From Candidatus Woesearchaeota archaeon (GTDB lineage Archaea; Nanobdellota; Nanobdellia; Pacearchaeales; GW2011-AR1), in contig CAYUZV010000001.1 of assembly GCA_964448605.1 (NCBI GenBank), positions 8,693 to 72,692 on the forward strand: a stretch of 64,000 bases of DNA, read 5' to 3'. Below the pieces are notes generated by a model that made no database searches, was not told the origin of the DNA, and saw nothing but the letters and a program-made list of their open reading frames with translations. Position 1 is the first letter of the stretch. Every line of letters begins with the position of its first letter. A program made the translations under genes and the position numbers. This document shows, piece after piece, positions 26,782 to 61,990 of this stretch.

Positions 26782-27186
26782 ATGGTTGAAAATAATTTAG
26801 ATATTTATCCAGAGAGATTTGATTTGGAAGATGGAAGGTTTTCTTTTCTTTTTGCTTCAGTAGGTTGTAGTATTGAGGGTTATTTGAATGGGCAAGATGT
26901 TGATTATAAAGATTTGGAAAGGGCAGGAAATATTTTAAAAGATTTTGGAGAGAGTGATTCAGAAAGTTTTTATTTGGAATTTTTATCAAATATTATTGAG
27001 GAGTGCGAAGATTCTGAAATTAATTATAGGCATGTGAGAGATTATGTTTTTGGAAGAGGTTTAGATTTTTTAAAATTTGATAGATTAGAAGATGATTCTA
27101 AGGAACGTTTAAGGGATTTTTCAATTGTTTTATCAAGAAAAGCAAGAGAATATAGAAATTATTATTTTAAAGGCGTTAGTTTGTGA
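26782..27186 (+). CDS. Hypothetical protein, second tandem paralog.
   Basis: Begins MVENNLDIYPERF. The same 42-nt upstream and start sequence as the first paralog, with 1 mismatch. Confidence 0.4.
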   Translation: MVENNLDIYPERFDLEDGRFSFLFASVGCSIEGYLNGQDVDYKDLERAGNILKDFGESDSESFYLEFLSNIIEECEDSEINYRHVRDYVFGRGLDFLKFDRLEDDSKERLRDFSIVLSRKAREYRNYYFKGVSL

Positions 27187-27544
27187 TTATTTTGGGATAT
27201 TTTGTTGAAAGAGGTTTGATTATGTTTTGGAGTATGTCTTCTTTTAAGTCAGGAGATTTAATATTTTTTAATTTGTTTTTTATAAATTTCCAAGTTTTGA
27301 TATCAAATTCTTTTTTGTAAAGTTTTAGGGTTTGTATTGCAAGTGTTTTTTCAAGTTCTTTTGAAGAATTCCAGAGTTTGTTGAAAATTTTGTAGAATTC
27401 TTCTAAAGAATGTTCCTCGTATAATATTTTTGAAAGTGTTTTTAATTCTGGAAGTTTTGTTTTGTAGAATTTATGATTTGTTTTAATGTAATCTTTTATA
27501 TCTTTTTCAATCTCTTTATTATTCAATTTCTGCAATGATTTCAT
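27176..27544 (-). CDS. Hypothetical helical protein.
   Basis: 122 aa, K/E-rich. Tightly packed upstream of the L31e gene. Confidence 0.3.
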   Translation of the reverse strand: MKSLQKLNNKEIEKDIKDYIKTNHKFYKTKLPELKTLSKILYEEHSLEEFYKIFNKLWNSSKELEKTLAIQTLKLYKKEFDIKTWKFIKNKLKNIKSPDLKEDILQNIIKPLSTKYPKIITN

Positions 27545-27545
27545 C

Positions 27546-28094
27546 TTATTTTGCTATTGGATCTTGGTCAACCACTTTTTTATCTTTGGAAATATGCTTT
27601 TTTTCCTTAGCTTCTTTGTCTGCCTTTTTTTCTGATTCTTCTTCTGATGATTCTATTGCTTCTTTTTCAGTTTTTTCTTCAGCAGGTTTTATTTTCTCTT
27701 CTATTGCCTTTCTTTCATCTGCTTTTTCTTTTACTTTCTTTTTTATTTTTTCAGATTTTTTTTCATCTCTTGTTTTTTTGAATTTTAAAGGGTCTGGAAG
27801 TTTTGCAAGTTCTACATTCACTATTCCGTCTGAAGATTTTTTTGCTTTTACTTCAATTTTTGCAGGCGGTTTTTTCATACCTTTATATCGTATTTCATTG
27901 TTTAAATTTATGTCAAGTTTTACTTTTTTTAAATCTCTATCATAAATCTTCATATGTTTTGCAATAAATTTTTTTAATGCTTTAACTGCTTTTGTTGCTC
28001 TTTTATATTCAGGAACTTTTAACCATTCTTTTCTAAGTGGAACTATATAAGTTCTTTCAGATTCTATTTTTGGAGTTTCTGGTTTAGTTGCCAT
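27546..28094 (-). CDS. rpl31e: Ribosomal protein L31e with a K/E-rich C-terminal extension.
   Basis: N-terminal 90 aa match L31e (ERTYIVPLRK...KATKAVKALKKFIAKHMK...LNNEIRYKG). Remaining 90 aa are a low-complexity K/E tail. Sits in the conserved archaeal L39e-L31e neighbourhood. Confidence 0.65.
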   Translation of the reverse strand: MATKPETPKIESERTYIVPLRKEWLKVPEYKRATKAVKALKKFIAKHMKIYDRDLKKVKLDINLNNEIRYKGMKKPPAKIEVKAKKSSDGIVNVELAKLPDPLKFKKTRDEKKSEKIKKKVKEKADERKAIEEKIKPAEEKTEKEAIESSEEESEKKADKEAKEKKHISKDKKVVDQDPIAK

Positions 28095-28095
28095 T

Positions 28096-28302
28096 TTATC
28101 CTAATTGTTTTTTTCTTTGTCTTCTTGGTTTAATTTTTAATTTTGTTCTTCTCCAGTTTCTTCTATTTGATGTGATTGATGAAGGATGCATTCTTTTTCC
28201 TGGTCCGAATTTTTTTAGAATTGTCCAGACAGGAGCCCATCTGGTTCTTTTATTTGCTTTGCTTAATTTTATTTTCTTTTGATATCTTCTTTTTATTGGC
28301 AT
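28096..28302 (-). CDS. rpl39e: Ribosomal protein L39e.
   Basis: Basic protein of 68 aa (KKIKLSKANKRTRWAPVWTILKKFG...RRNWRRTKLKI). Adjacent to L31e as in most archaea. Confidence 0.65.
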   Translation of the reverse strand: MPIKRRYQKKIKLSKANKRTRWAPVWTILKKFGPGKRMHPSSITSNRRNWRRTKLKIKPRRQRKKQLG

Positions 28303-28475
28303 TTTATTATTCTTTCCTGTGTTTTAGTATTCTTCCTCCCTTCTTTGATATTTTTAGTGCTTCTTTCTTCTCTTGAACCTATTTCTCCCTGAACAATATG
28401 AAAATATAGGTTTGTTCCAGTAACAAATCCGTAATAACCTTCTTCTTTTTTTCTGTTCATACATAAGCATCCCAT
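28293..28475 (-). CDS. Small hypothetical protein between S19e and L39e.
   Basis: 60-aa ORF in the position where many archaea carry a small conserved gene. No motif recognised. Confidence 0.2.
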   Translation of the reverse strand: MGCLCMNRKKEEGYYGFVTGTNLYFHIVQGEIGSREERSTKNIKEGRKNTKTQERIIKCQ

Positions 28476-28476
28476 T

Positions 28477-28890
28477 TTATTTAACTCCCTCTAAAAGTTC
28501 TTTTCCTTTATCAGTAAGTTTTCTGCCTGCTCTTTTTCCTGACTCTTTTGATTTTTCTAAAACTCCAGCATTTTCTGCTTGTTGGATAATTGTTCTTATT
28601 ATTTTTCCACTTGCTTTTTTAAATCTTTCAGGTTTATATCCTCTGTTTTTTTTGCTCCCATATCTTGTTCTTAATCTGTTAACTCCAACTACATTATTTA
28701 GATAAATCTGTCTTAGAATACTTGATGCTCTTTTGTGCCAGAAATTTTTTTCTTGAGGAGGTCTTTTTTTACTTGTTCCTGTTTTAACAAAAAAACTCCA
28801 TTCAGGTTGTTCAAATTCAGGCATACTTTTCAGTATTTCTGCTAATTTTTGATTATATTCTCCTGCTTGTAATTCATATACTGGATTCAT
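28477..28890 (-). CDS. rps19e: Ribosomal protein S19e.
   Basis: 137 aa. PEWSFFVKTGTSKKRPPQ...WHKRASSILRQIYLNNVVGVNRLRTRYG is a close match to S19e. Confidence 0.75.
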   Translation of the reverse strand: MNPVYELQAGEYNQKLAEILKSMPEFEQPEWSFFVKTGTSKKRPPQEKNFWHKRASSILRQIYLNNVVGVNRLRTRYGSKKNRGYKPERFKKASGKIIRTIIQQAENAGVLEKSKESGKRAGRKLTDKGKELLEGVK

Positions 28891-29021
28891 TTTAATTAGG
28901 CATTCCTTTCGGAATTAGATAAGTTTTTAACTTAAACCTGAGTATAGGTTAGAAAGAAGGTTTATAAATGTTGTTGTTGAGGTGAAATTTGTTTTTAAAT
29001 TAATGATGTTGTAAATTATAT

Positions 29022-31082
29022 CTATTTCTCAGCACTCTGTTCTTTCTTTTGTCTCTCTAAAAAATTTCTTATAAATTCTTTGTTTTTTTCATAATCAATT
29101 ACCTTTTTTATTTCATAAACCTCTCCTTCACCAATCTCTTTTTTATCTGCTTTTATTTCAGAGATTCCTTTTTTGTAAGATTCTTTTGTTACTAAGATTT
29201 GTTTATCAGATGCATCTGCTAATCTCTTTGCAGTGCTTATAAAATTGCCTAATGCTGTAAATTTTAATTTTTTATTTTCTATTTTGCTTACAATATCTCC
29301 TGAATTTATTCCAATCCCAAATTCAAACTTGTCATTGAATTTTTTATTGTGTTCTTTTAAGAAAAGTGCTATTTTTTCAGCACATTTTGCTGCGACTCCT
29401 TCATTTTTGTTTGATTTTGTCATTACAGGACTGAAAATCATATATAAATAATCTCCTTGTTCATAAATCGCTCCTTTGTTTTTGTAAACACATTCAACTG
29501 CTTTTTCCAAACTTTTTTTAGAATTATCATTTATTTTATTTTTTATTTTTAAAACAATTGCTACTGCCTTGTTTTTATCTCCTTTTGCAACTAATCCTTG
29601 TTCTGCTTGATTTGGTGCTTTTAGAGTTTCTTTTGTTTTTACAGATGTTTTGTTTTTTTTCTTTTTAAAAAAAGGATATGCAAATGATTTTTTCTTAAAT
29701 ATATTTCTGAATAGGAATAGTGTTCCTGCTCCAAGAATAAGAATGAAAAAAATCCAGACAATTGGTGTTTTTAGTGCCATTGAACCTGTTTCTTTAATGT
29801 CTCTTACACTAACTGCATTTCCAGTTAAAACAACTCCTCCTTGGTTTAGTTCGTTTTCTCCATCACTTATTCTTATATTATATTCTTCTCCTGAACCTGT
29901 TAATTTGAATTCTTTGCTGTTTCCTAATTCAAGTTCAACTTTTTTTACAAAAGGTTTGCCATTTAATTCTATTTGAATGTCTTTTTGGTAAGGTATGTTT
30001 CCAATGTTTTTGACAATTAAGCTATTGTTAATTAATTCAAAAGAAGCTATTTCTTTTTCATTTATGTAGAATTTTTTTATATTGTTTACATCTTTGCTTG
30101 ATGCTTCTATTTCATAATATCCTGATGTTTGATTGAATGGTATTTTGAAAAATACTGTTTCGTCTGATTGGACTATTTTTTCAAATATTCTTTCAGATTG
30201 TGAGTTTCTTATAATTACAGAAATTTCGTCTGGAATTAGGTTTCCAGTTTGGTCTAAAAGTATTGGTTTGAATTGGAGTTCTTCTCCAGGGTTAATGTTT
30301 TGATTATTTAATGCGATGTCTGCTTCTGTTAGTATCTGAAAGATTTCCAGATTTGCCATTGCTATTCCCTCGCTTGCTCTTGTTCCTGAAACTTGCTCGT
30401 AAACAAGTGCATCTATTCGATATTCTCCTGCCGGAGATTCATAAGGAATTTGAATATCTACTGAAAAAAAACCTTCGTCTACTTTTCCATAAAATTTTCC
30501 AGCTTCAATATCAGGAGTTATTGAATTTGTTGTTTCTTCTGTTTGATTTGTTTGATTGTTTTCTTCCTGGATTTCAGGTTCTTCTGTGATTGTTTCTAGA
30601 ATAGTTAAAAGAGGAATTGTTACTTCAACATTTCCATTTGCTGGAGCTCCATTTATTTTTTTTGCATTTCCTGAGATTGTTAGAGTTTCTCCAGGATTTG
30701 CATAAAATGATTCTGTGTCTAAATAAACTTCTAATGCATTTGAGATTTTGAATTTTCGGCTTTCTTGTGATTCTTGGTCATACTCTGTGTAGAGGTGACA
30801 TTCTCCGTTTGCTTCATTTATTGTATGAAAATTTAAAGGTAATTTAATTTCGACTATTCCCTCTTCTGAAGGGAGTAGATTAAAACTTATTACATTAGTG
30901 CCAGTGCATATTAAATCAGTTTTAATTAAGTGTCCTTCTTTTATTAAGTCTACATTTACTTCAACATCAATTCTATCACCGAGATTGTAAGTTGGCTGAA
31001 TATTATCATAGTAAATTCCTGCCTGTATAAACTGGATTACTAAGGACAAGATTATAATTATTAACAAACTTCTCTTTTTCAT
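29022..31082 (-). CDS. Receptor-like membrane protein. Signal peptide, extracellular domain of about 430 aa, one TM helix, and an intracellular class III nucleotidyl-cyclase-homology (CHD) domain that looks degenerate.
   Basis: Signal MKKRSLLIIIILSLVIQFIQAG. TM helix TPIVWIFFILILGAGTLFLF. C-terminal region aligns by eye to the CHD consensus: AVAIVLKIKN vs VxxLFADIxGFT (first metal Asp replaced by Lys), QGDYLYMIF vs IGDAYMVAF, FEFGIGINSGDIV vs LRIGIHTGPVV, KFTALGNFISTAKRLAD vs EYTVIGDTVNLASRLE. Confidence 0.5.
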   Translation of the reverse strand: MKKRSLLIIIILSLVIQFIQAGIYYDNIQPTYNLGDRIDVEVNVDLIKEGHLIKTDLICTGTNVISFNLLPSEEGIVEIKLPLNFHTINEANGECHLYTEYDQESQESRKFKISNALEVYLDTESFYANPGETLTISGNAKKINGAPANGNVEVTIPLLTILETITEEPEIQEENNQTNQTEETTNSITPDIEAGKFYGKVDEGFFSVDIQIPYESPAGEYRIDALVYEQVSGTRASEGIAMANLEIFQILTEADIALNNQNINPGEELQFKPILLDQTGNLIPDEISVIIRNSQSERIFEKIVQSDETVFFKIPFNQTSGYYEIEASSKDVNNIKKFYINEKEIASFELINNSLIVKNIGNIPYQKDIQIELNGKPFVKKVELELGNSKEFKLTGSGEEYNIRISDGENELNQGGVVLTGNAVSVRDIKETGSMALKTPIVWIFFILILGAGTLFLFRNIFKKKSFAYPFFKKKKNKTSVKTKETLKAPNQAEQGLVAKGDKNKAVAIVLKIKNKINDNSKKSLEKAVECVYKNKGAIYEQGDYLYMIFSPVMTKSNKNEGVAAKCAEKIALFLKEHNKKFNDKFEFGIGINSGDIVSKIENKKLKFTALGNFISTAKRLADASDKQILVTKESYKKGISEIKADKKEIGEGEVYEIKKVIDYEKNKEFIRNFLERQKKEQSAEK

Positions 31083-31121
31083 AGTTAATTAAAATAAGAG
31101 GTATATTTAAAGGTTGCGAAG

Positions 31122-31460
31122 TTATTTATCAGAATCAATTAATGCAATTATTCCACCAATTAGTGCAAGAATTCCAATAAGTGAGCTTATTGATAAAACA
31201 CCTACAACTATAGCAATTATTGCACCTGTTCTGACTGTTTTGGGATTTTTCATTTTTTCAGATGCATTCCAAAGCAATAATCCTATTGCAAAGATTATTA
31301 GAGAGATTAGTAAAATTATAAATATTAAATTAAAAGGCAGTCCTTGGTATAGGGACAATCCTATGATTAATATTATTCCTAATAATAGGATTATTCCTGC
31401 AGTTATGAGATTTATGATTGCTGCGATTTTTGTTAATAGAGCACCTGTTTTGCTTTTCAT
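31122..31460 (-). CDS. Small integral membrane protein with 3-4 TM helices.
   Basis: Strongly hydrophobic helices. Preferred over the overlapping plus-strand ORF on genomic context. Confidence 0.3.
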   Translation of the reverse strand: MKSKTGALLTKIAAIINLITAGIILLLGIILIIGLSLYQGLPFNLIFIILLISLIIFAIGLLLWNASEKMKNPKTVRTGAIIAIVVGVLSISSLIGILALIGGIIALIDSDK

Positions 31461-31490
31461 AATTGTGTAGGGAGAATAAAGTTTATAAAA

Positions 31491-31709
31491 TTAAGGTTTC
31501 ACTAAATTTTCTAATTCTCCTCTTATTTCTTCTAAAGATGTTTCTTGATTTATTTCATTTAAAATATGATTTATTGCTAAGGTGTATCCATAATAGCATG
31601 CTCGGGTGTATGCTCCTGTTCCAGTCATTACCTTTGTTCCTTTTTCATTTGGTTTTGTTTCTTGTTTTATTTTTCTTTTATAGAAATCTATTTGGTTGGT
31701 GAAAATCAT
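31491..31709 (-). CDS. Hypothetical small protein.
   Basis: 72 aa of diverse composition. Same strand as neighbours. Confidence 0.2.
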   Translation of the reverse strand: MIFTNQIDFYKRKIKQETKPNEKGTKVMTGTGAYTRACYYGYTLAINHILNEINQETSLEEIRGELENLVKP

Positions 31710-32048
31710 TTTTAATAAACCTCCTTTCAGATATTTTTAGAGAATTCAGAAACAGGTTATAAATCTTAGAGAACATTTTATTCAGAGAGATTAATTAAGA
31801 TTAATCTATAATAGAAGTAAAGCTAGTAAATTTAGTTTTTTTAGAACTTGGTTTTTACTAAGCATTATTTTTTTAGGCGAAGAGAGTTTTTAAGTTTGTT
31901 GGTTTTGAAATTGTATGGTTTCACATTTGACATTTGTTGAACTGTTTCGCAAAAATATCTGTATCTGGTAAATATTATTCGTTTCGTTAGGAACTCTTAT
32001 GAAAGGGCTTGGTTGGACTTATCTTTTAGATAACTGATATAATCAGTT

Positions 32049-33995
32049 TTATTGATTTGGTGTTCCTGACATTCGGCTTCCGCCTCCTGGAATTTCTCCA
32101 CCTAATTCCATTGGCAGTGTATGGAATCCTGCTCCGTATGTTTGGTGATGTATTGATGGATTTATTGTTCCGTGTCCTCCATAATATGGTCCGAAAGATG
32201 CCATTGCCTGATTCCAGAAAGGACCTGCCATTCCAGAGTATATTGGTGAACCTCCACTTTCTAATGTATAAATAAATGGGCTTGTTTGGAAATGCTGGAA
32301 AAAATTTCCACCTTCAAAAATCCTTTTACCCTTGAATCCACCTTTTTTTAATTCTTCTAAAATATCTTTCATTGGAAGATTTCCCATTCCAGGGGGGAGG
32401 TCTGTGTGTGTTGAACCAAAATTGTCATTGTAGTGGAGGTGTTTTACAAATGGTGCAATTTCCTTTGTCTCTTTTGTAATTTGTTCAGGACCAAAACCTT
32501 GTTTTCTCATCATAGAAATGTGAGAGGTGTCCCATGTGGCTCCAATTAATCTTTTTGCTGCTGCTTCTGCTTCTTTTTTTGATTTACCTTGCTTGATTAA
32601 TTTGTCTTGGAAATTTTTTCTTGTTTTTTGGATTAATTCTTTTAATTCTTTTCCTGATGAAAGAGCATATCCGTAAAGTGGATTTTCAACACTCAGTATT
32701 GGTGCTTTTTCTCCGTATTTTTCATAAGCATGAAGTGCAGTATTTGCCAGAGTTTCACTTGATTTTTCATTTGTGAATTTTTCTATTGGGACGAATTGTT
32801 GGGGAATTGGTATACTTCCAAAACCTTCCAGAGTTTCATCAAATAATTGAGATTGTTTTAAAATAATTTCAGGTTTTCTTTTTCTGTATTCTTGAGGGTT
32901 ATTATATTGTAAATTAAACTCTTCTTCAGAATTTTTATTCCATTTCCTTTGTATTACCTTTAAATAGTCTCTTACTTTTACTACTTTTCCAGTCTTAGGG
33001 TCTTTTATACCTTCTCCTGTTTGAGGGTTTCTTAATAAAGGGTCATCTAATTCACTAAATCTTGCAGCTTTTTCAAAGGTATTCTGCAAACTCATTTGAA
33101 CATTTTCTAAAAATCTTTCTGCTCTGTCTAATTCTTTTAATGCAGGTTGATAATATTCTTGTTCTTCTGTTGTTATTTTTTCACCCTTTGATACTTTTTC
33201 TAAATAAGGGATTAATTGAGGTTGGACTCTTCGTATTATTTCATCTGCCTCTTTTTTATAAAAATCAATTTCCCGAATATTATTCCTCCATTGGCTTGTA
33301 TTTACCATTTTTAATCTTCTTTCTGGGTCAAATATTTGTCCTTTTGCTTTTTTTCCTTCTAAATTTGTTTCTTCTGGGAAATAAGTGTAATCTCTTTCTA
33401 ATGCAGTTGGTTTTCCTGTTTGTTGGTCAATTACAACTAATCTTCCTATTTCAGGACCTTTTCCTTTTTTTTGTTCTGGAATTAATTCTGTTCCAGGAAG
33501 TTCGTGAGATGCATGGACTGTTACAGGCATGTTTCCTTTTGGACTTAGCTCTTGTGCTCTTGCTATTATTGTTTTAAATTGTTCTTCTGCTGATTCTCTA
33601 TTTTGCTCTGACCATCCTTGCTGTGTGATTCCAGAAGGTTCAATTAGAGGTGCATGAAGTGTTGATTCTGCTCCTGTTAATTCATTTAATCTTTTAATTT
33701 CATTTAAATGTCCTTTGGGCATCATTTCAAAAACTTCAGGGTTGATTACAGAAACTTCAGTTGTTTTCATTCCTTGATTAAGTAGTTTAGAAACTTCTTT
33801 TAATTGATTAGAGGTTTGAATTGAAGTTGTTCCTCCCATTTCTCCAACTGGAACTCTGTAACCCATAAAGTTATAACTAGGGTCAAGAAGATAAGTTGTG
33901 CCTGGATAAATAGATTCATATGATACCATCTTTTTATTAAAAGGTTTGGATTGTTTATATATTTTTGGGAGTAGATTATAGAAATATTTAAACAT
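32049..33995 (-). CDS. Large uncharacterised protein with a divergent xylose-isomerase-like / endonuclease-IV-like TIM-barrel split by an insertion of about 300 aa, plus a G/P-rich C-terminal tail. Last gene of the five-gene operon.
   Basis: By-eye correspondence to AP-endonuclease-2 / sugar-phosphate-isomerase TIM-barrel motifs: YRVPVGEMGG (~VGAHVSAAGG), TLHAPL, VTVHASHE, TWDTSH (~DTCH), VKHLHYNDNFG...PPGMGNLPMKDILEELKKGGFKGKRIFE (~HLHLND...GEG.I.........GY.G....E). C-terminal tail GGEIPGGGSRMSGTPNQ. No overall family match recognised. Confidence 0.4.
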   Translation of the reverse strand: MFKYFYNLLPKIYKQSKPFNKKMVSYESIYPGTTYLLDPSYNFMGYRVPVGEMGGTTSIQTSNQLKEVSKLLNQGMKTTEVSVINPEVFEMMPKGHLNEIKRLNELTGAESTLHAPLIEPSGITQQGWSEQNRESAEEQFKTIIARAQELSPKGNMPVTVHASHELPGTELIPEQKKGKGPEIGRLVVIDQQTGKPTALERDYTYFPEETNLEGKKAKGQIFDPERRLKMVNTSQWRNNIREIDFYKKEADEIIRRVQPQLIPYLEKVSKGEKITTEEQEYYQPALKELDRAERFLENVQMSLQNTFEKAARFSELDDPLLRNPQTGEGIKDPKTGKVVKVRDYLKVIQRKWNKNSEEEFNLQYNNPQEYRKRKPEIILKQSQLFDETLEGFGSIPIPQQFVPIEKFTNEKSSETLANTALHAYEKYGEKAPILSVENPLYGYALSSGKELKELIQKTRKNFQDKLIKQGKSKKEAEAAAKRLIGATWDTSHISMMRKQGFGPEQITKETKEIAPFVKHLHYNDNFGSTHTDLPPGMGNLPMKDILEELKKGGFKGKRIFEGGNFFQHFQTSPFIYTLESGGSPIYSGMAGPFWNQAMASFGPYYGGHGTINPSIHHQTYGAGFHTLPMELGGEIPGGGSRMSGTPNQ

Positions 33996-34494
33996 CTCTT
34001 AATCTGAAATCCTTTTCTTTTTGTTCAAATGGAAGAGGTCCTGAATCTTGTTGAAATCCTGGTGTGTAGTTTTGGTTTTGATTGTTCATTCCTGGATAAT
34101 TTGTTGCTGAAGCTCTCATATCAACATCTCTTTGAAATCCAGGTGCTCCTCGATTTATTGCACTTATTCCTGTATTTTGAGGAGAGGTTTCATATTCTGT
34201 ATTGTTGTTTTCTTCATAAGGATTGTTTGTTTCCTGATAAGTATTCTGAATTCCTGTGTAAGGGTTTAAATTGTTTTCTTCTTGTTCATCATTTCTTCTT
34301 ATTCTTACATTTCTTAATCCTTGTTCTAAATCTGTAATTGGTTCTGTGTCCAGAGTGTGTTGGGGATTTTCAGTTCTTCTGAATGGAGTGAATGTTGTAG
34401 TTTCATCTATGATGTTTTCTAGTTCTTCGTCAAGGTCTTCATCTTCAGATTCCTCTTCAAAATCTTCATCCTCTTGTGATTCTTCTTCTTCCAT
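33988..34494 (-). CDS. Highly acidic, N/Q/E-rich intrinsically disordered protein. Fourth gene of the operon.
   Basis: MEEEESQEDEDFEEESEDEDLDEELEN... then N/Q/T/Y/P-rich low complexity. 8-nt overlap with the downstream gene. Confidence 0.4.
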   Translation of the reverse strand: MEEEESQEDEDFEEESEDEDLDEELENIIDETTTFTPFRRTENPQHTLDTEPITDLEQGLRNVRIRRNDEQEENNLNPYTGIQNTYQETNNPYEENNNTEYETSPQNTGISAINRGAPGFQRDVDMRASATNYPGMNNQNQNYTPGFQQDSGPLPFEQKEKDFRLRDV

Positions 34495-34524
34495 GATTAA
34501 TTAAAGATATACAAATATAAATAA

Positions 34525-36003
34525 TTATCGTCCACCCATTCCCAGATGAACTTTTCCAAATGTTGAAGGTGATTCTTTTGAGCCTTTTTCTCCACCTGTT
34601 CTTACTGATGCCATTCCCATTGATTTCTTGAAAATATCATAAACTGTGAATCCAGCATCCATTGAATCAGCTTCAGCATAATTTCTCAAAAATTGTTCAT
34701 AATAATTATCTGGTTTGATTCCTTTTTCTTTTATTATTTTTAATTTTTCTTTTTCTTTATCTTCTTCTGATTTTTTTGGTTTTTTTTCAGAAGTAAATGC
34801 AAAAAGGGCTGAAAATGGATTTGTATCATCTTTGTTTTTTAATTTTTCTTCTTCTTTATCTTCTTCTAAAAATTCCTTTATGTCATCAGATAATTGTGCA
34901 AGAGAGTCGTCTGTCACTCCTTTTACAAGTTTCAGTGAATCTTCTAAATCTGACTCGTTTAATTTATCTTTTAGTAACATTATTTCTTCATGGTTTAAGC
35001 AATATGATTTGAAGGATATGTCTGCTCGTCCTCCAAAAACATAATGTTGTCCTGCTTTTTGAGGTATTCCTCTAAATGTGAATGTTACAAAAAGAACCTG
35101 AAAATATTCTCTTAATGCTTTTTTTTCTTCTAGTTTTAGGAATTTTTCTGGAAGGTCTTCATTGATAACTGCTCCTTGTATGTTGAATTTTTTTGTTCCC
35201 ATTAAAGTTAATTCTAAAAGTATTGTATTGAATGCAGTTACTAATGCTGCATCTTTTTGAAGTCCTTCGTCTTCTGAAAGTTGTTCTGCTGCTCTTAAAT
35301 ATGGCTTTGCCCATTTTGAGTAGAGTTTTAAAGAGTCTACTTCACTTTTTAAGTATCTTTTTTCAATTTCATATCTTTTTCTTAATTCTTGTTCACTTCT
35401 TTTTTTCCATTCAAAAAATTCCTGGAGTCTTGGTTTTAGTATTCTTTTTACTCTATCATTTAAATCCATACCATCTACTGCTTTTACTGATTTTGCTGAT
35501 AAAAATGCATCTCTTAGGGTTACAAAACTTAGTTCTCCTGCTGTGAGTGCATTTATGCTTCCTTGTCCTCTTTGGACATCAACTTTATCCATCCATATTT
35601 GTTTTAATGCTAATAGTCCTGCTTCTGCTTTTTGAGGGTCTTTTGATTTTGCAGTTTCATAATGGCTTAATCTTATTTTGAATTCTTTTAAGTCGTAAAT
35701 AATATTCATTGTTCCTTTTAGAACATTATTTACATTTCCTAAAATTCTTGCTGCTTCTTGTTGCATCTGAGTTGCTTTTCCTCTTAGTTCTGAAAAATGC
35801 CCACTTCCAGGTGATGAAGCAAAATTGTCTGTGATTTTTTCAACTTTTTTAAAACTATTATTCATAAAATCAAGAATCCAGAAATAAACTGGTTCTAATG
35901 TTTCAGATGCTGAATCAAAAGTTAGTTTATGCTCTATTGCAGGATTGCCTTTTTTATATCTTGGACTTATTTTACTAATGATTTTTCCTATTTCCATTTT
36001 CAC
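34525..36003 (-). CDS. Uncharacterised 492-aa predicted alpha-helical/coiled-coil protein with an acidic K/E-rich C-terminal region. Third gene of the operon.
   Basis: Long ORF with protein-like composition. No recognisable catalytic motif. Central heptad-like region (KKRSEQELRKRYEIEKRYLKSEVDSLKLYSKWAKPYL). Confidence 0.45.
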   Translation of the reverse strand: MKMEIGKIISKISPRYKKGNPAIEHKLTFDSASETLEPVYFWILDFMNNSFKKVEKITDNFASSPGSGHFSELRGKATQMQQEAARILGNVNNVLKGTMNIIYDLKEFKIRLSHYETAKSKDPQKAEAGLLALKQIWMDKVDVQRGQGSINALTAGELSFVTLRDAFLSAKSVKAVDGMDLNDRVKRILKPRLQEFFEWKKRSEQELRKRYEIEKRYLKSEVDSLKLYSKWAKPYLRAAEQLSEDEGLQKDAALVTAFNTILLELTLMGTKKFNIQGAVINEDLPEKFLKLEEKKALREYFQVLFVTFTFRGIPQKAGQHYVFGGRADISFKSYCLNHEEIMLLKDKLNESDLEDSLKLVKGVTDDSLAQLSDDIKEFLEEDKEEEKLKNKDDTNPFSALFAFTSEKKPKKSEEDKEKEKLKIIKEKGIKPDNYYEQFLRNYAEADSMDAGFTVYDIFKKSMGMASVRTGGEKGSKESPSTFGKVHLGMGGR

Positions 36004-36047
36004 CTTTTTATGTTATAGATAAGAAGAAGATATTTATAAGGTTTTGT

Positions 36048-36632
36048 TTAGAGGCATCTGAATGTTTGTTTTAATTTTTTTGATGCTCTTCTTATTAATT
36101 CTATGTCTGATTTTCCTGCTTCAAGCATGTATGTTAGTTCTTCTAAACTTTCTGATTGAGGCATAAAAGACATTGAGGGAAGTTCGACTAAATGAATTAG
36201 TTTTCCCAGATTTTTGTAAGTTTCATCTTCTATTAAATAGGCTCTTTCATTTTCAGGCTCTGATATTTCAATTGTTTCTTTTTGCCATTCCTGTTGTTCT
36301 TGGGAAATACCCTCTGTTATTTGCATTGGTGTCCAGAGTGTTTTAGTTGCATGTTCAGGAGTTTTTATTTCACAGTATTTGAAACGACCTGTTTTTAAAT
36401 TGTTAGAAATGCAAAATCCAATATATGATGGACTGAATTGAACATATGGAAAATCATCAAATTTTATAAAAGTAGGTTGTGTATGAACATGAGTTGCATA
36501 TTTTAATTTTACATCATCAGATTTTGGATAAACCATTCCTAATACATCTCCTGTTACAACTTCAACAGGAGTGTGAATTCTTTTTCCTATTTCTAATAGG
36601 AATAAATCTCTGTTGTCTGTTTTTTTGTTCAT
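36048..36632 (-). CDS. Uncharacterised 194-aa protein. Second gene of the operon.
   Basis: 4-nt overlap with the upstream gene. No family recognised. Contains YATHVHTQP but not a canonical JAMM motif. Confidence 0.4.
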   Translation of the reverse strand: MNKKTDNRDLFLLEIGKRIHTPVEVVTGDVLGMVYPKSDDVKLKYATHVHTQPTFIKFDDFPYVQFSPSYIGFCISNNLKTGRFKYCEIKTPEHATKTLWTPMQITEGISQEQQEWQKETIEISEPENERAYLIEDETYKNLGKLIHLVELPSMSFMPQSESLEELTYMLEAGKSDIELIRRASKKLKQTFRCL

Positions 36633-37123
36633 TTCTTTTTCACCAAATCCATCATTGATTTTCTTTCAAATTTTAGGATATTGCCTGTTTCTGAATCAAT
36701 TAAAATATGAAGAATTATTAGTCCTTCTAACATGCAGGTTAGATTCCAGACTTGTTTTTCTTGGTGAGTTTGTAGGACTGCGATTATTTTGTTAATTTTT
36801 GCTGAAATTCCATTGTCAAGTGCTTTTATTCCAACTAATCCTTTTAGGTCCTGGAGTTCGGTTTTTACTTCTGGTTTTATTGGATTCAGAGGTTTTGTTG
36901 AATCAAGAATTTTATCTTCTTTTATAATTACTTCATTATTTTTATTTAAATCAAATGTGAAGATTTTATCTTCTACTTTGTAATCTAAGTTTTTTTTAAT
37001 ATCATTACTTAAAAAATCAATTATAAAAAATCCTGCACATAATTCTGCATTTGGATGTTTTTCTCTGAAGTTTTTGAATGTTTGCGATTCTGTTATTTTT
37101 TGGTATGTTTGTGTGAATGACAT
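36629..37123 (-). CDS. Uncharacterised 164-aa protein. First gene of the operon.
   Basis: First gene of the co-directional cluster. Upstream AT-rich promoter region at 37124-37197. No family recognised. Confidence 0.4.
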   Translation of the reverse strand: MSFTQTYQKITESQTFKNFREKHPNAELCAGFFIIDFLSNDIKKNLDYKVEDKIFTFDLNKNNEVIIKEDKILDSTKPLNPIKPEVKTELQDLKGLVGIKALDNGISAKINKIIAVLQTHQEKQVWNLTCMLEGLIILHILIDSETGNILKFERKSMMDLVKKK

Positions 37124-58353: not shown

Positions 58354-58592
58354 TTTTAATAAAGAGTTTTCTTTTTAAAAAACCTTTCTGTTTTTCTTAG
58401 GATTTTTATGTAAATTATTTAAATTATTTACTTTAATGTCATTTGTATTTAAATTATTGTATGATAATATTATAAAAATGTTTTAAATTTTACTTTTTAT
58501 TATGACAGATGGGTAATAATTTTATAATAACTTCAGGTTTGTTTTAATTTTTTATGTTGTTCTTTTTTATATTTTATTTTCTTGTTTATTTT

Positions 58593-58808
58593 ATGAAAAA
58601 TAATTTAGAATCAATAGGATGTTTTAATGTTCCTGCAAGAATTGAAGGTGGAGAAAGGAAATGTCCAAAGTGTAATGAAAGCACCCTTAGAGAAATTGAC
58701 TGGGTTGAAAGTGCAGGGGGCAGTGGTGATAATGTTACAACTTTTTATAGCTGTCGTAAATGTGACTATAGAGAAAAGGGAGAAACTTTTTTTACAAATG
58801 ATTATTAA
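58593..58808 (+). CDS. Small Zn-ribbon protein (CPKC...CRKC).
   Basis: GERKCPKCNESTLREIDWVESAGGSGDNVTTFYSCRKCDYRE. Paralog of the next gene. Confidence 0.35.
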   Translation: MKNNLESIGCFNVPARIEGGERKCPKCNESTLREIDWVESAGGSGDNVTTFYSCRKCDYREKGETFFTNDY

Positions 58809-58889: not shown

Positions 58890-59114
58890 ATGAGTTTAAG
58901 AAATAATGAAAGTTTGGAAATGATTGATAGTTTTGAGTCAGGTATTAGAATGGAAGGAAGTTATCAGGAAAGATGCAGGAAGTGTGGAGAGTTAGTTGTT
59001 GTTAAAAAATATTTGGAAAAAGGAGGTGGTTCAGATAATCTTGTTGGAGAGTATTCTTGCAGAGAGTGTGGTTTTTATCACAGAGAGGAACATATGAATA
59101 CTGATTTTTGGTAA
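58890..59114 (+). CDS. Small Zn-ribbon protein (CRKC...CREC), paralog of 58593-58808.
   Basis: QERCRKCGELVVVKKYLEKGGGSDNLVGEYSCRECGFYHRE. Same architecture as the upstream paralog. Confidence 0.35.
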   Translation: MSLRNNESLEMIDSFESGIRMEGSYQERCRKCGELVVVKKYLEKGGGSDNLVGEYSCRECGFYHREEHMNTDFW

Positions 59115-59115
59115 A

Positions 59116-60297
59116 ATGGTTTTGAGTTTGTCAAGGGAAAATTTAACAAAACTTTATCGTCCTGTTCATGGTTTGGAAGATATTTTTGAAGTTGTAAAAA
59201 AATGCGAGGATGTTATGGGTAATGGACCGAGTTATGTTACAATTGATCCCCGGGATTTTGAAGTTAATGTTTATTCAGATAAAAGGAGATTGAGACCTTA
59301 TGATATTTCTGAACAAAAAAAGAAAGATGAATCTGAGAGTAATGTTAGAAAAGATATTCTTGAAAAAGGAGAGTGTGTGATTTGCAAGGGTTTTTTTGAT
59401 TCAGGAAATCCAACAACAACTCCGGTAATTAGTTATGATAATTTTTCTGATGAGAGTTATTCTTTTACAAATATTAATAAATTTCCTGTTGCAGTTCCTG
59501 AAAAAATTCCTATTCATGGCAGGATTCCTGAAATATTTTTTAGATTTAATGATGATATAAATAGTCAGTTTGGAGTTCATTTGTTATCATGGGCAACTAA
59601 TTTTCATAGAGATGTTCATCAGATGAGTTCTGAAGAGCATGTAAATTGTCTTGAAAATATTTTGAAGACTCAAGAACTATTGTTTTCTGGAAATGGGAAT
59701 GTTCGTTTTTATTCTCAATTAATTAAGAATACGGGAGGGATTGCTGGATGTAGTCTTGAACATGGACATTATCAAATGGTTTTTTCAAATATTCCTTCTG
59801 GAAAAAATATTTCAGATTTTAAATTTAGAATTGATAATGGAATTAGTTTTGCAGAACATGTAAGAAAAGAGAATCCTTCGGATTTGGAAATTGAAGGGAA
59901 TTATGGTTCAGTTAGGTTAGTTGTTCCTTATGTAACTGAAAAACCTTTTGAATTAATGATATTTCCGAAAAATAGTGGAATAAGTAATTTTAGGGATATT
60001 TCTGATGAGAGGACTTTTTCTGGTTTGTCTCAGGCGATTATAGATTGTGCAAGGGTTTTTTATTATTTTGCAGATTTTTCAAATAAACCTTTTGGTTATA
60101 ATATTGAATTTCATGAGGGTTTGACAAAAGATGATGAAATGTATGTTGAACTTATTCCAAGCACTCAAATAACTGCCGGGCTTGAACTTTTGGGTTATAA
60201 TGTTTGTCAGCAGACACCTGAAAGCTCTTCAAAATTATTTAATGAAATTTTGAAAGAATTGCCTGAAAATCCTGAGGAGTATTCTATTGTTCCTTAA
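59116..60297 (+). CDS. GalT-like (HIT superfamily branch III) nucleotidyltransferase / phosphorylase.
   Basis: HGHYQ motif (CSLEHGHYQMVF) analogous to the GalT HPHGQ. N-terminal Zn-type CVICKGFF. Two-half domain length of 393 aa. Confidence 0.4.
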   Translation: MVLSLSRENLTKLYRPVHGLEDIFEVVKKCEDVMGNGPSYVTIDPRDFEVNVYSDKRRLRPYDISEQKKKDESESNVRKDILEKGECVICKGFFDSGNPTTTPVISYDNFSDESYSFTNINKFPVAVPEKIPIHGRIPEIFFRFNDDINSQFGVHLLSWATNFHRDVHQMSSEEHVNCLENILKTQELLFSGNGNVRFYSQLIKNTGGIAGCSLEHGHYQMVFSNIPSGKNISDFKFRIDNGISFAEHVRKENPSDLEIEGNYGSVRLVVPYVTEKPFELMIFPKNSGISNFRDISDERTFSGLSQAIIDCARVFYYFADFSNKPFGYNIEFHEGLTKDDEMYVELIPSTQITAGLELLGYNVCQQTPESSSKLFNEILKELPENPEEYSIVP

Positions 60298-60374: not shown

Positions 60375-61157
60375 ATGGCGCAGATATTACCTGAACCAAA
60401 TGTAATTGATATATTAGGAAAATATTCTGATACAAAGAGAGATTTTTTAAGAGCAGCTAGTGCTGTAGTAACTTTAGAAGAATTAGCTAATGGAAAAGAT
60501 TGGTCAAATCCTGAAGATAGGCAGAGTTTGGGAAAAATGATTTATCCTGAAAATCCTGGTCTTTTTGAAGGAAGGGCTGTTGATGTTTTTAGAAATGATG
60601 TTTCAGTTCTTAGTTCTGTTGTTCCTGCTCAATTAAGTGCTTATATGTCAAATGGCGATAATAGGGATGATATATTTGGAGAGTTAGTTGATGAAGATGT
60701 AATTTTTGAACTTCCTATGGAATTGCCTTTTGTTGAGACAGGAGATGAAAAAAAGGATAGATTGGGAATAAGTGCTGTTAAATATAAACAGGTTTCAAGA
60801 GTTTTGGAAATGAGAGAAGAAGAAAGACAAAGATATGTTTTAAATAGGCTTCAAAAAAGTAAAATTCCTGAAGCTTGGTTGTATGGTTTTAATCCTAGTA
60901 ATTCTAATGATATTTATATGACTTTAAATTCTTATAGGTTATCTGATGGAGCTACTTACAAAAGAAATGTTTTTTCTGCCGGAGCTAATGGTGTTATAGA
61001 TTATGCTAAGAGAGTTTTAGAAGTTATTAAAGGTGAGAATAAAGATAGAGAATTGGTTCTTTTTGATAGAGGTTTAGCTAAAACAGCTTTAGGTCAGTTT
61101 GGTTATACTCAAAGAAAGGAAGAAGCTGAAAAATCTAAAGAGAATAAGTCAGATTAA
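60375..61157 (+). CDS. Hypothetical protein.
   Basis: 260 aa with no motif. Convergent with the NTase paralog. Confidence 0.3.
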   Translation: MAQILPEPNVIDILGKYSDTKRDFLRAASAVVTLEELANGKDWSNPEDRQSLGKMIYPENPGLFEGRAVDVFRNDVSVLSSVVPAQLSAYMSNGDNRDDIFGELVDEDVIFELPMELPFVETGDEKKDRLGISAVKYKQVSRVLEMREEERQRYVLNRLQKSKIPEAWLYGFNPSNSNDIYMTLNSYRLSDGATYKRNVFSAGANGVIDYAKRVLEVIKGENKDRELVLFDRGLAKTALGQFGYTQRKEEAEKSKENKSD

Positions 61158-61990
61158 ACAATCTCCTTAATTAATTTCATAGTTACATTAAAGAATTCTT
61201 CTGCTTTGTCTTGCCACATGTCAATTACATTTCCTGAAATGTCTTTGATTTCTCCGTGCATGATTTTTTTGTGGAGTTCGTAGATTTCTTTGAAGTCTTT
61301 TACATATTTTGATTTTAAAAGATTTTTATTTACAAAATGTTCATTTAGAAATGCTGTTAAATGTTCATATGAAGGAGGAGTTACATTAACTGCCATAAGA
61401 AGTGCTTGTGCAGAATCTACCATTGCCCAGAAGCTTCCTTCAATTGCAGATATTTCTGACTGCTTGCTTCTTATAATGTGGAATGGAACTCTGTTTAAGC
61501 AGGCATGGATTGATTCAGGTGTTGGTTTTATTTTTCCATCTTGTAAAAGTAATTTCAAAGGATTAAAAAAACCTCCAAAGTCAATTAGGACTTCTCCGTA
61601 TCTTAAAACATTAATTACAGTCGGGTCTCCGTTTGTTAAATCCTGCCACCATGTTGTGAGTTTTATTGTGTTTATGTGCAAATCTCTTTTGTATGGGTTT
61701 GATTTCATTATTTTTCCTAATTCATCTCTATACCATGCAATAAGTTTTTCATCAAATTTTATAGAGGCATCATCTATGATAATTATTATGTCAATATCAG
61801 AACCAGTTACCATTGTTTGTTTTGTTGCTGAACCAAAAAGGACGATTGACTTCACCATTTTGTCAAATTTTGTGTAAACTTTTTGAGCAAAATCCATTGC
61901 AATATCTCTTTCTGATTTTATGTGCAGGGTTGGATGTTTAGTAGATTTTGTTTTAGTTACTTCTTTTTTTTCAGATTTTTTCTTTTTCAT
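61154..61990 (-). CDS. Pol-beta-superfamily nucleotidyltransferase fused to a C-terminal helical (HEPN-like) domain, KNTase-like architecture. Paralog of 49793-51595.
   Basis: VLFGSATKQTMVTGSDIDIIIIIDD (NTase motif). DGKIKPTPESIHACLNRVPFHIIR. Confidence 0.5.
   Translation of the reverse strand: MKKKKSEKKEVTKTKSTKHPTLHIKSERDIAMDFAQKVYTKFDKMVKSIVLFGSATKQTMVTGSDIDIIIIIDDASIKFDEKLIAWYRDELGKIMKSNPYKRDLHINTIKLTTWWQDLTNGDPTVINVLRYGEVLIDFGGFFNPLKLLLQDGKIKPTPESIHACLNRVPFHIIRSKQSEISAIEGSFWAMVDSAQALLMAVNVTPPSYEHLTAFLNEHFVNKNLLKSKYVKDFKEIYELHKKIMHGEIKDISGNVIDMWQDKAEEFFNVTMKLIKEIV

Follow-up and report, generated by a model that had tools for sequence, protein, structure and literature searches.

Within a 64,000-nt stretch of archaeal DNA (hereafter, the window; G+C 30%), we analyzed five adjacent minus-strand genes, here called A to E, which a preliminary description had singled out as a candidate for an undescribed, possibly lineage-specific unit. 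We found that a conserved, undescribed gene module does exist at this place, but that it is not made up of these five genes: it comprises C, D and E, usually followed by a gene for a nucleotidyltransferase (NTase), and it is almost certainly specific to the Woesearchaeota and Pacearchaeota (Nanoarchaeota in the GTDB). The distribution of the module is vertical and single-locus. The window holds its Pacearchaeota-type version, in which the NTase gene has moved away, A is a clade-specific add-on and B is a strain-specific ORFan (Table 1). E is probably a three-metal phosphodiesterase, as judged from its metal-ligand residues and its predicted structure, and we tentatively read the whole as a cytoplasmic, vertically inherited module of housekeeping grade, built around this phosphodiester-cleaving enzyme with lineage-specific partners.

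Archaeal ribosomal protein genes adjoin the region, and the closest relatives of the window proteins come from metagenome-assembled genomes labeled Pacearchaeota, Woesearchaeota or Nanoarchaeota. Synteny was assessed by clustering of open reading frames (ORFs) and by tblastn in a sample of 86 related loci, consisting of 80 genome loci and six loci obtained through exact-protein look-ups. The typical order, all on the same strand, is C, then a gene encoding 145-240 aa in the position of D, then the E orthologue and usually an NTase of about 280 aa, with a helical, C-terminally anchored protein sometimes lying between E and the NTase. Among the 56 loci with enough sequence, E lies downstream of C on the same strand in 50, and in 29 of these only the D-position gene stands between them; the NTase follows E within 2.5 kb in 39 of 46 loci. 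The preliminary description had proposed gene-neighborhood conservation as a check, and the C-D-E order indeed proved to be kept across related Woesearchaeota and Pacearchaeota loci, even in the most distant C relatives found (25-27% identity). The flanking genes, in contrast, vary by clade, being ThrRS, a protein with MG2 and cyclase domains, and A in Pacearchaeota-like loci, and a small coiled-coil gene, GluRS, a pilin and a U32 peptidase in Woesearchaeota-like loci. In the 26 genomes carrying all compared genes, median pairwise identity was 60.5% for C, 68.9% for the NTase and 44.9% for E, against 60.6% for the neighboring GluRS, so that C and the NTase are under a constraint of housekeeping grade.

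Table 1. Genes of the core module, accessory genes and putative promoter elements in the window.
Feature	Position	Strand	Remarks
C, 490 aa, alpha+beta domain split by long helices	34525..35997	(-)	Founding core protein of the module
D168, acidic, intrinsically disordered	33988..34494	(-)	Isoelectric point 4.05; fast-evolving, positionally conserved family
E, AP_endonuc_2 / endonuclease-IV-like TIM barrel	32049..33929	(-)	PF01261, AF2 model, Foldseek, invariant ligand residues
NTase, 278 aa, Pol-beta superfamily (MNT/KNT-like), helical C-terminal domain	61154..61990	(-)	Relocated fourth core gene, about 27 kb from the cluster
A164, two putative PepSY-like repeats, predicted cytoplasmic	36629..37123	(-)	Clade-restricted accessory, directly upstream of C
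B194, ORFan	36048..36632	(-)	Strain-specific, between A and C; outside the conserved module
Two TATA-like boxes, putative promoter	TTTATAAA 37177-37170; TTATAAA 37151-37145	(-)	Read from sequence; 74-nt divergent intergenic region upstream of A
TATA-like box TTATAAATA, putative internal promoter of the core	36031..36039	(-)	About 35 nt upstream of the C ATG

The enzymatic center of the module is E, in which the preliminary description had recognized a split metal-dependent TIM barrel, in agreement with both its family match and its AlphaFold2 (AF2) model. PF01261 is matched at 39.3 bits (cut-off 31.1) over residues 472-561 of the 648-aa form, and is present in all 120 E homologues among the matches listed. 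The AF2 model is confident (pLDDT 85, pTM 0.82) and places barrel strands 1-4 at residues 31-139 and strands 5-8 at 411-538, separated by an insertion (about 148-408) of some 260 aa that consists of beta-hairpins and four long helices. The protein ends in a 65-residue tail rich in glycine, proline and aromatic residues, which is predicted to be disordered and yet contains invariant and near-invariant positions. Foldseek matched the model with probability 1.00 to 3wqo, 8xiv, 3aal, 8edd and 1xp3 (target TM-scores 0.57-0.74), the best structural matches being MJ1311 (3WQO), ketose (psicose) 3-epimerases and bacterial endonuclease IV. At the level of sequence, the sole match in the PDB is again MJ1311 (profile E value 1.4e-8).

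Seven residues of E (H92, H139, E415, D467, H470, H499 and E539) are the same in all 51 sequences compared and lie, in the AF2 model, at the C-terminal ends of barrel strands, or just after in the case of H470. Two further positions, 508 and 510 (window 32400-32410), covary perfectly among the 51 homologues, being H/D in 37, D/H in 10 and H/E in 4, and never two alike. These positions align with the D-E-H of MJ1311, and in E. coli Nfo they correspond to the region of D229-x-H231; the minority D-x-H order is the one found in endonuclease IV and MJ1311. The trinuclear site of E. coli endonuclease IV is formed by H69, H109, E145, D179, H182, H216, D229, H231 and E261, and E has counterparts at all nine of these positions, as mapped by motif and strand position rather than by superposition. 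It thus combines the E-D-H-E tetrad of the epimerases, whose metal site is single (E415, D467, H499, E539 in E), with five extra ligands of the endonuclease IV type, and this complete three-metal ligand set suggests a phosphodiesterase rather than a sugar isomerase.

The closest described relatives are the archaeal endonuclease IV homologues PfuAPE (PF0258) and MJ1311, members of the AP_endonuc_2 / xylose-isomerase-like superfamily, which have the barrel fold in common with E. MJ1311 is listed as the endonuclease IV homologue of M. jannaschii by Kiyonari et al. (PMC2770678), and two N-terminal histidines separate the active P. furiosus PfuAPE from its inactive paralogue PF1383 (PMC2770678). 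The nine ligand positions of E include these two histidines, which are needed for the apurinic/apyrimidinic (AP) endonuclease activity of PfuAPE. E, whose own activity is predicted, differs from these homologues in several respects: endonuclease IV is a compact single domain of about 280-300 aa, whereas E has 626 aa, twice that length, with the insertion between strands 4 and 5 and the disordered tail; the D-x-H pair is inverted to H-x-D in most members of its family; and it sits in a conserved cluster with C, D and the NTase.

C is the first gene of its co-oriented block in most relatives. Its family gave more than 2,500 matches in a word-indexed search and comprises 706 representative clusters at 50% identity; the relatives that carry a name are all called "hypothetical protein" and belong to Nano-, Woese- or Pacearchaeota. 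The AF2 model (pLDDT 77.7) shows an alpha+beta domain of five strands (residues 23-31, 53-62, 261-272, 300-317 and 320-337) that is interrupted by helices of 49, 26 and 62 residues, followed by a disordered linker rich in lysine and glutamate, with the motif NPFSALF as an invariant element, and then by a conserved helical domain at the C terminus. The protein had been described as a 492-aa helical or coiled-coil protein with an acidic K/E tail; the long helices and the K/E-rich stretch are there, but so is a five-stranded sheet, and the K/E stretch is an internal linker rather than a tail. Several Gly-rich loops (SSPGSGHF, RGQGS and FGGR) are invariant. Searches of the PDB with phmmer and with profiles gave no meaningful match to C, Pfam scans of 56 diverse members and of long variants with N-terminal extensions gave no consistent match, and a Foldseek search of the model against BFVD returned nothing with an E value below 0.01. 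The alpha+beta domain bears a weak resemblance to helix-grip, KA1 and lipid-transfer folds, and we found no similarity to the HK97/encapsulin, ESCRT-III/PspA, BAR, SMC or viral capsid folds. C is a highly constrained protein without a detectable structural relative in the searches made.

The proteins in the D position looked unrelated by BLAST. An iterative hidden Markov model (HMM) seeded with the D of the window recovered 52 of 2,241 ORFs, 40 of which lie between C and E, and nearly all of the other 12 come right after C on contigs that break off before E is reached. This pattern shows that D is a real, fast-evolving family. As the preliminary description had stated, D is a very acidic protein of 168 aa (Table 1). 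What the family retains are short motifs, namely SPxLE, (D/N)LEQGL, E/K-Y and (N/L)PFE. Several of the E/K-Y tyrosines are conserved in these barely alignable proteins, and are candidate modification sites, for instance for nucleotidylation, given the linked MNT-type NTase.

A motif of the NPF type recurs in disordered segments of all three proteins: NPF(S/L)AL(F/I) is found in the linker of 74 of 81 C proteins (window 34790-34810, C residues about 395-401), GGNPF.PS(I/L) in the tails of 26 of 56 E proteins, and (N/D/S)PF, located at the C terminus, in 15 of 49 D proteins (loci L001-L080), against counts of 0-2 in unrelated neighboring control families. Judging by these counts, the motif may serve C, E and D as a shared docking motif. 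Such docking-type motifs, together with the conserved disordered tail of E, resemble cargo-targeting peptides, and C, a 490-aa protein of non-enzymatic appearance with 49- to 62-residue helices, is conserved at the level of a tRNA synthetase. These features could be accounted for by a structural scaffold: C would polymerize to form an assembly of cytoskeletal, membrane-associated or compartment-like nature, short linear motifs would bring in D and E as clients, and what E catalyzes would be of secondary importance. We consider a scaffold improbable, given that C is unlike any of the folds listed above, that its invariant Gly-rich loops look more like ligand or active sites than like coiled-coil packing, and that no membrane anchor is present.

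The NTase encoded in the window has 63-68% identity to its counterparts downstream of E in related loci. It matches PF01909 at 31.1 bits (cut-off 21), shows weak NCBIfam and PDB matches to MntA, ANT(4') and KNT, and carries the motif LFGS...SDIDIIIIIDD, of the form GS...DIDxxxxxDD, which is conserved in 45 sequences and has the hG[GS]x9-13Dh[DE] pattern of Pol-beta-superfamily NTases. The core motif (GS...DxD) and the domain order are like those of MntA/HepT, a type VII toxin-antitoxin system, and of kanamycin nucleotidyltransferase (KNT). In contrast to these, the NTase occurs in a single copy, is inherited vertically rather than being patchy or mobile, and exceeds GluRS in conservation, and no conserved Rx4-6H RNase motif of HEPN proteins is evident in it by inspection. 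A HEPN-like C-terminal domain is a candidate assignment only, based on the weak full-length matches to KNT and ANT(4') and on a family description in PMC6393860. A 260-aa gene convergent with the NTase (60375-61157) was considered as a member of the helical families that lie beside the NTase elsewhere, and showed no similarity to them.

Enzymes of the MntA type act in type VII toxin-antitoxin systems by AMPylating tyrosine. The weak MntA-type matches of the NTase, the E/K-Y motifs kept in the otherwise unalignable D, the complete phosphodiesterase-type metal site of E and the synteny of all four genes would be compatible with a protein nucleotidylation switch, in which the NTase adds AMP or NMP to tyrosines of D (or C), E removes it, and C is the regulated effector or platform. 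This scheme is entirely inferential and, in our view, has a low probability: no endonuclease IV family member is known to de-AMPylate proteins, the NTase is unlinked here, and the conservation of the D tyrosines comes from a difficult alignment.

To return to the reading of the module as a housekeeping unit around a phosphodiester-cleaving enzyme, E most likely hydrolyzes a phosphodiester bond by means of its three-metal site, and we propose that its substrate would be nucleic acid, either abasic sites or blocked 3' ends, by analogy with PfuAPE. C would be the platform, to which E could be tethered by its conserved disordered tail and the short NPF-type motifs; D might act as an acidic disordered adaptor or regulator; and the MNT/KNT-like NTase would modify or regulate one of the partners by nucleotidylation, rather than fill gaps. 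That the substrate of E is DNA or RNA and that C and D are its physical partners is possible, although we would not call it probable. We hold as similarly doubtful the most far-reaching version, in which C-D-E-NTase is an undescribed machine of the Woesearchaeota and Pacearchaeota, with C as a new fold and essential platform, and with E and the NTase as eraser and writer on nucleic-acid ends or on D tyrosines.

Several findings weigh against this proposal, of which the first concern the linkage of the genes. Unrelated genes interrupt the core in about 20 of the 56 loci, those inserted between C/D and E including a metallo-beta-lactamase-fold protein and an ABC transporter (L085:8438-9022; L064, L073, L057), and the NTase is unlinked from the cluster in this genome. 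The insertions and the unlinked NTase mean that co-transcription is not obligatory, and that separate promoters are possible for the core genes. The same interruptions, the translocation of the NTase and the strongly unequal evolutionary rates of C, D and E would be expected if C, D, E and the NTase were unrelated housekeeping genes that stay adjacent without any joint function. We regard such a residual synteny as quite unlikely, since gene order and orientation are kept even where C has only about 26% identity and all flanking genes have been replaced; in the experience of comparative genomics, such persistence usually signals functional coupling in prokaryotes.

The other contrary findings concern the substrate. 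No recognizable DNA- or RNA-binding fold was found in C by profile and structure searches, no direct evidence ties C or D to nucleic acids, and the NTase is of the MNT/KNT type, which is normally a modifier of small molecules or proteins and not a DNA polymerase. With regard to E, the Foldseek scores of epimerases and of endonuclease IV overlap, an hhalign comparison with E. coli Nfo gave a weak local match covering the C-terminal motifs only, and no alignment was obtained between E and Nfo in global and low-stringency runs with the insertion trimmed. E also shows a weak match to CbiR, a small-molecule (cofactor) phosphodiesterase of the AP_endonuc_2 superfamily, to which sugar isomerases and epimerases belong as well, and its 260-aa insertion could change the substrate entirely. 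DPANN archaea rely on nucleotides and lipids that they scavenge, the substrates of KNT-like NTases are small molecules, and the folds that the C domain weakly resembles include lipid-transfer folds. All this would suit a metabolite module, in which E hydrolyzes or isomerizes a substrate other than nucleic acid, such as a nucleotide-sugar, a cofactor phosphodiester or a scavenged lipid head group, this compound is also activated or nucleotidylated by the NTase, and C binds the ligand or a membrane. We nevertheless judge a small-molecule role to be unlikely, if well short of negligible, because E has kept all nine endonuclease IV ligands, beyond the E-D-H-E tetrad that is sufficient for an epimerase, and because no transporter or pathway gene is consistently linked to the module.

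The two remaining genes of the cluster, A and B, stand outside the conserved core. In about 21 Pacearchaeota-like loci, as well as in L086, C is directly preceded by an orthologue of A (45-63% identity), and A was absent from the Woesearchaeota-like loci examined. The PepSY family PF03413 is matched by 7 of 21 members of the A family (best E value 1.8e-4), the copy in the window giving no match, and a two-repeat pattern is visible in the family alignment; phmmer and profile searches of the PDB returned no meaningful match for A. B194, for its part, matched only itself among 5.8e9 proteins, had no tblastn match in the 86 related loci even at E < 1, and had no family match. Given that A is directly adjacent to C in relatives, B appears as a strain-specific insertion. 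In scans of the five proteins against Pfam, NCBIfam, PHROGs and PADLOC, A to D were without a match. The earlier statement that none of the five could be placed in a known family needs qualification for E, which passes PF01261, and for A, whose family gives matches to PepSY. At the position occupied by A, Woesearchaeota-like loci carry a different gene, divergent and directly upstream of C (46 loci; e.g., L040:507-854, minus strand), which encodes a conserved protein of 110-140 aa with an MGLFGFGKK-type N terminus, a disordered middle and a C-terminal coiled coil.

The preliminary description had suggested an envelope, attachment or defense-type module. Inspection of the translations revealed no evident signal peptide or transmembrane segment in A to E, and the grand average of hydropathy was negative for all five. 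PADLOC-DB gave no match at E <= 0.1 for A to E or for a 686-aa neighboring protein, PHROGs gave a single match (E = 0.08), and no relatives of C were found on IMG/VR viral contigs. The absence of secretion signals and of defense or phage matches, combined with vertical conservation at housekeeping level, leaves such a role unsupported, and the single-locus vertical synteny is unlike that of patchy defense islands. A five-gene envelope, attachment or anti-virus defense machine expressed as one operon could draw on the tight co-directional packing of the genes and on the MG2/cyclase membrane protein that recurs near A-C in 7-8 relatives. With B an ORFan, A restricted to a clade, and the packing no different from the norm of the genome, we consider this machine extremely unlikely.

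All five ORFs lie on the minus strand where they had first been placed (A, B and D as in Table 1, C as 34525-36003 and E as 32049-33995), and all five are real and protein-like rather than antisense artifacts, with homologues in related genomes for four of the five. Two of the starts need correction. We read the true start of C as the ATG at 35997, which gives 490 aa, and reject the GTG at 36003: the ATG is preceded by an AGGTGA Shine-Dalgarno-like site, within which the GTG itself falls, and the NCBI-sourced entry for C (P0001) has 490 aa and starts at this ATG. Likewise, we take the true start of E to be M23, the ATG at 33929, yielding 626 aa instead of the 648 aa counted from 33995, as the E homologues and an NCBI-sourced 626-aa entry (P0121) all begin at M23. 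Overlaps of 4-8 nt or gaps under 50 nt had been reported between the genes. The 4-nt overlap of A and B and the 30-nt gap between C and D were confirmed, and the gap between B and C is 44 nt to the GTG and 50 nt to the ATG. The 8-nt overlap of D and E depends on the start at 33995; with the start at 33929 it vanishes, leaving a gap of 58 nt.

Tight packing had been taken to imply a single unit, co-translated behind one promoter. However, such packing is the norm in this genome: coding sequence fills 87% of the window, and genes on the same strand are separated by a median of 57 nt, with 21 of these 43 gaps measuring 50 nt or less, the five genes being part of an 11-gene co-directional run (27176-37123). 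Nor is co-translation behind a single promoter supported by the related loci, where C often follows divergent genes and unrelated genes sometimes lie between C, D and E. In addition to the TATA-like boxes before A and C (Table 1), one is found upstream of E (about 33962-33954), so that a single promoter is neither shown nor required; motifs of this kind are common, and not statistically distinctive, in DNA of 70% A+T. A scan for sigma-70 promoters and intrinsic terminators gave results at or below shuffle expectation, and is uninformative for an archaeon. Rfam and tRNA scans of the window had no match in or near the cluster.

Literature searches on the cluster, on DPANN endonuclease IV, on expression and on follow-up of NEQ050/NEQ484 found nothing beyond two surveys. 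Makarova, Wolf and Koonin (2019; PMC6393860) described four DPANN-specific conserved unknown families, among them cls.004259, an MNT domain fused to HEPN in a housekeeping context, and cls.004634, a double PepSY-like protein. Our NTase fits the former by description only (an NTase with a helical C-terminal domain, KNT-like matches, high conservation and a housekeeping context), and A164 fits the latter, again by description only, through its two putative PepSY-like repeats. C has beta-sheets, and is therefore not obviously the "alpha-helical" family cls.004340 of that survey, in which the C-D-E linkage is not described. Castelle et al. (2021; PMC8204110) defined Module 98, a set of 51 families, mostly of unknown function, common to Woesearchaeota and Pacearchaeota. 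The taxonomic distribution of C, D, E and the NTase is exactly that of this set, and they likewise lack annotation, a likeness at the level of distribution only; that study compared the presence and absence of families and contained no analysis of this cluster or its structures. The C-D-E cluster, the endonuclease IV-type site of E and the structure of C are described in neither survey. No described system matches the module, and the architecture of E is new within an otherwise known enzyme family.

Few uncultured archaea are as abundant as the Woesearchaeota and Pacearchaeota, and much of their small genomes lacks annotation. Published surveys give priority to their lineage-specific families but assign no functions to them (PMC6393860, PMC8204110). 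The present analysis turns anonymous families into one testable unit, a group-wide cluster with an assayable E, a second enzyme in the NTase, and a C conserved to synthetase grade; at the level of annotation, it also corrects the starts of C and E and identifies B194 as an ORFan. Were E the AP endonuclease of the clade, it would explain DNA maintenance in reduced genomes and would show that a repair nuclease can be tethered in a new manner. Were the module a nucleotidylation switch or a scaffold instead, it would be new cell biology for DPANN archaea, and a C-D-E-NTase machine would represent a lineage-defining housekeeping system without a counterpart in other archaea.

Some further features of the window were noted. 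The 11-gene run has its widest gap directly after E, where 340 nt are non-coding (31710-32048); this stretch gave no match in the Rfam and tRNA scans and contains a T5 run (31955-31951) that could be an archaeal terminator. A 171-aa ORF rich in leucine and phenylalanine (33062-33577, plus strand) lies antisense to E; this ORF is spurious in spite of its length, indicating that ORF length alone is weak evidence for a gene in this A+T-rich genome. The membrane and sensor genes at 29022-31709, of which the cluster had been said to lie downstream, are in fact downstream of the cluster in the direction of transcription. They include the gene of the 686-aa protein (29022-31082, minus strand), which has an N-terminal hydrophobic segment, an MG2 domain (PF01835), a transmembrane segment in mid-protein and a weak adenylate/guanylate cyclase catalytic domain; its homologues adjoin the A-C genes, in the other orientation, in 7-8 Pacearchaeota-like loci. 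A 72-aa ORF (31491-31709, minus strand) gave a sub-threshold match, probably due to chance, to PF12193, the C-terminal domain of a Sulfolobus virus coat protein (E value 1e-3; 19.7 bits against a cut-off of 25.2). Finally, two small paralogous ORFs stand in tandem on the plus strand (58554-58808, 84 aa, and 58890-59114, 74 aa), each encoding two CxxC pairs in a zinc-ribbon-like arrangement, upstream of a GalT-like gene (59116-60297) with weak NCBIfam galT matches.

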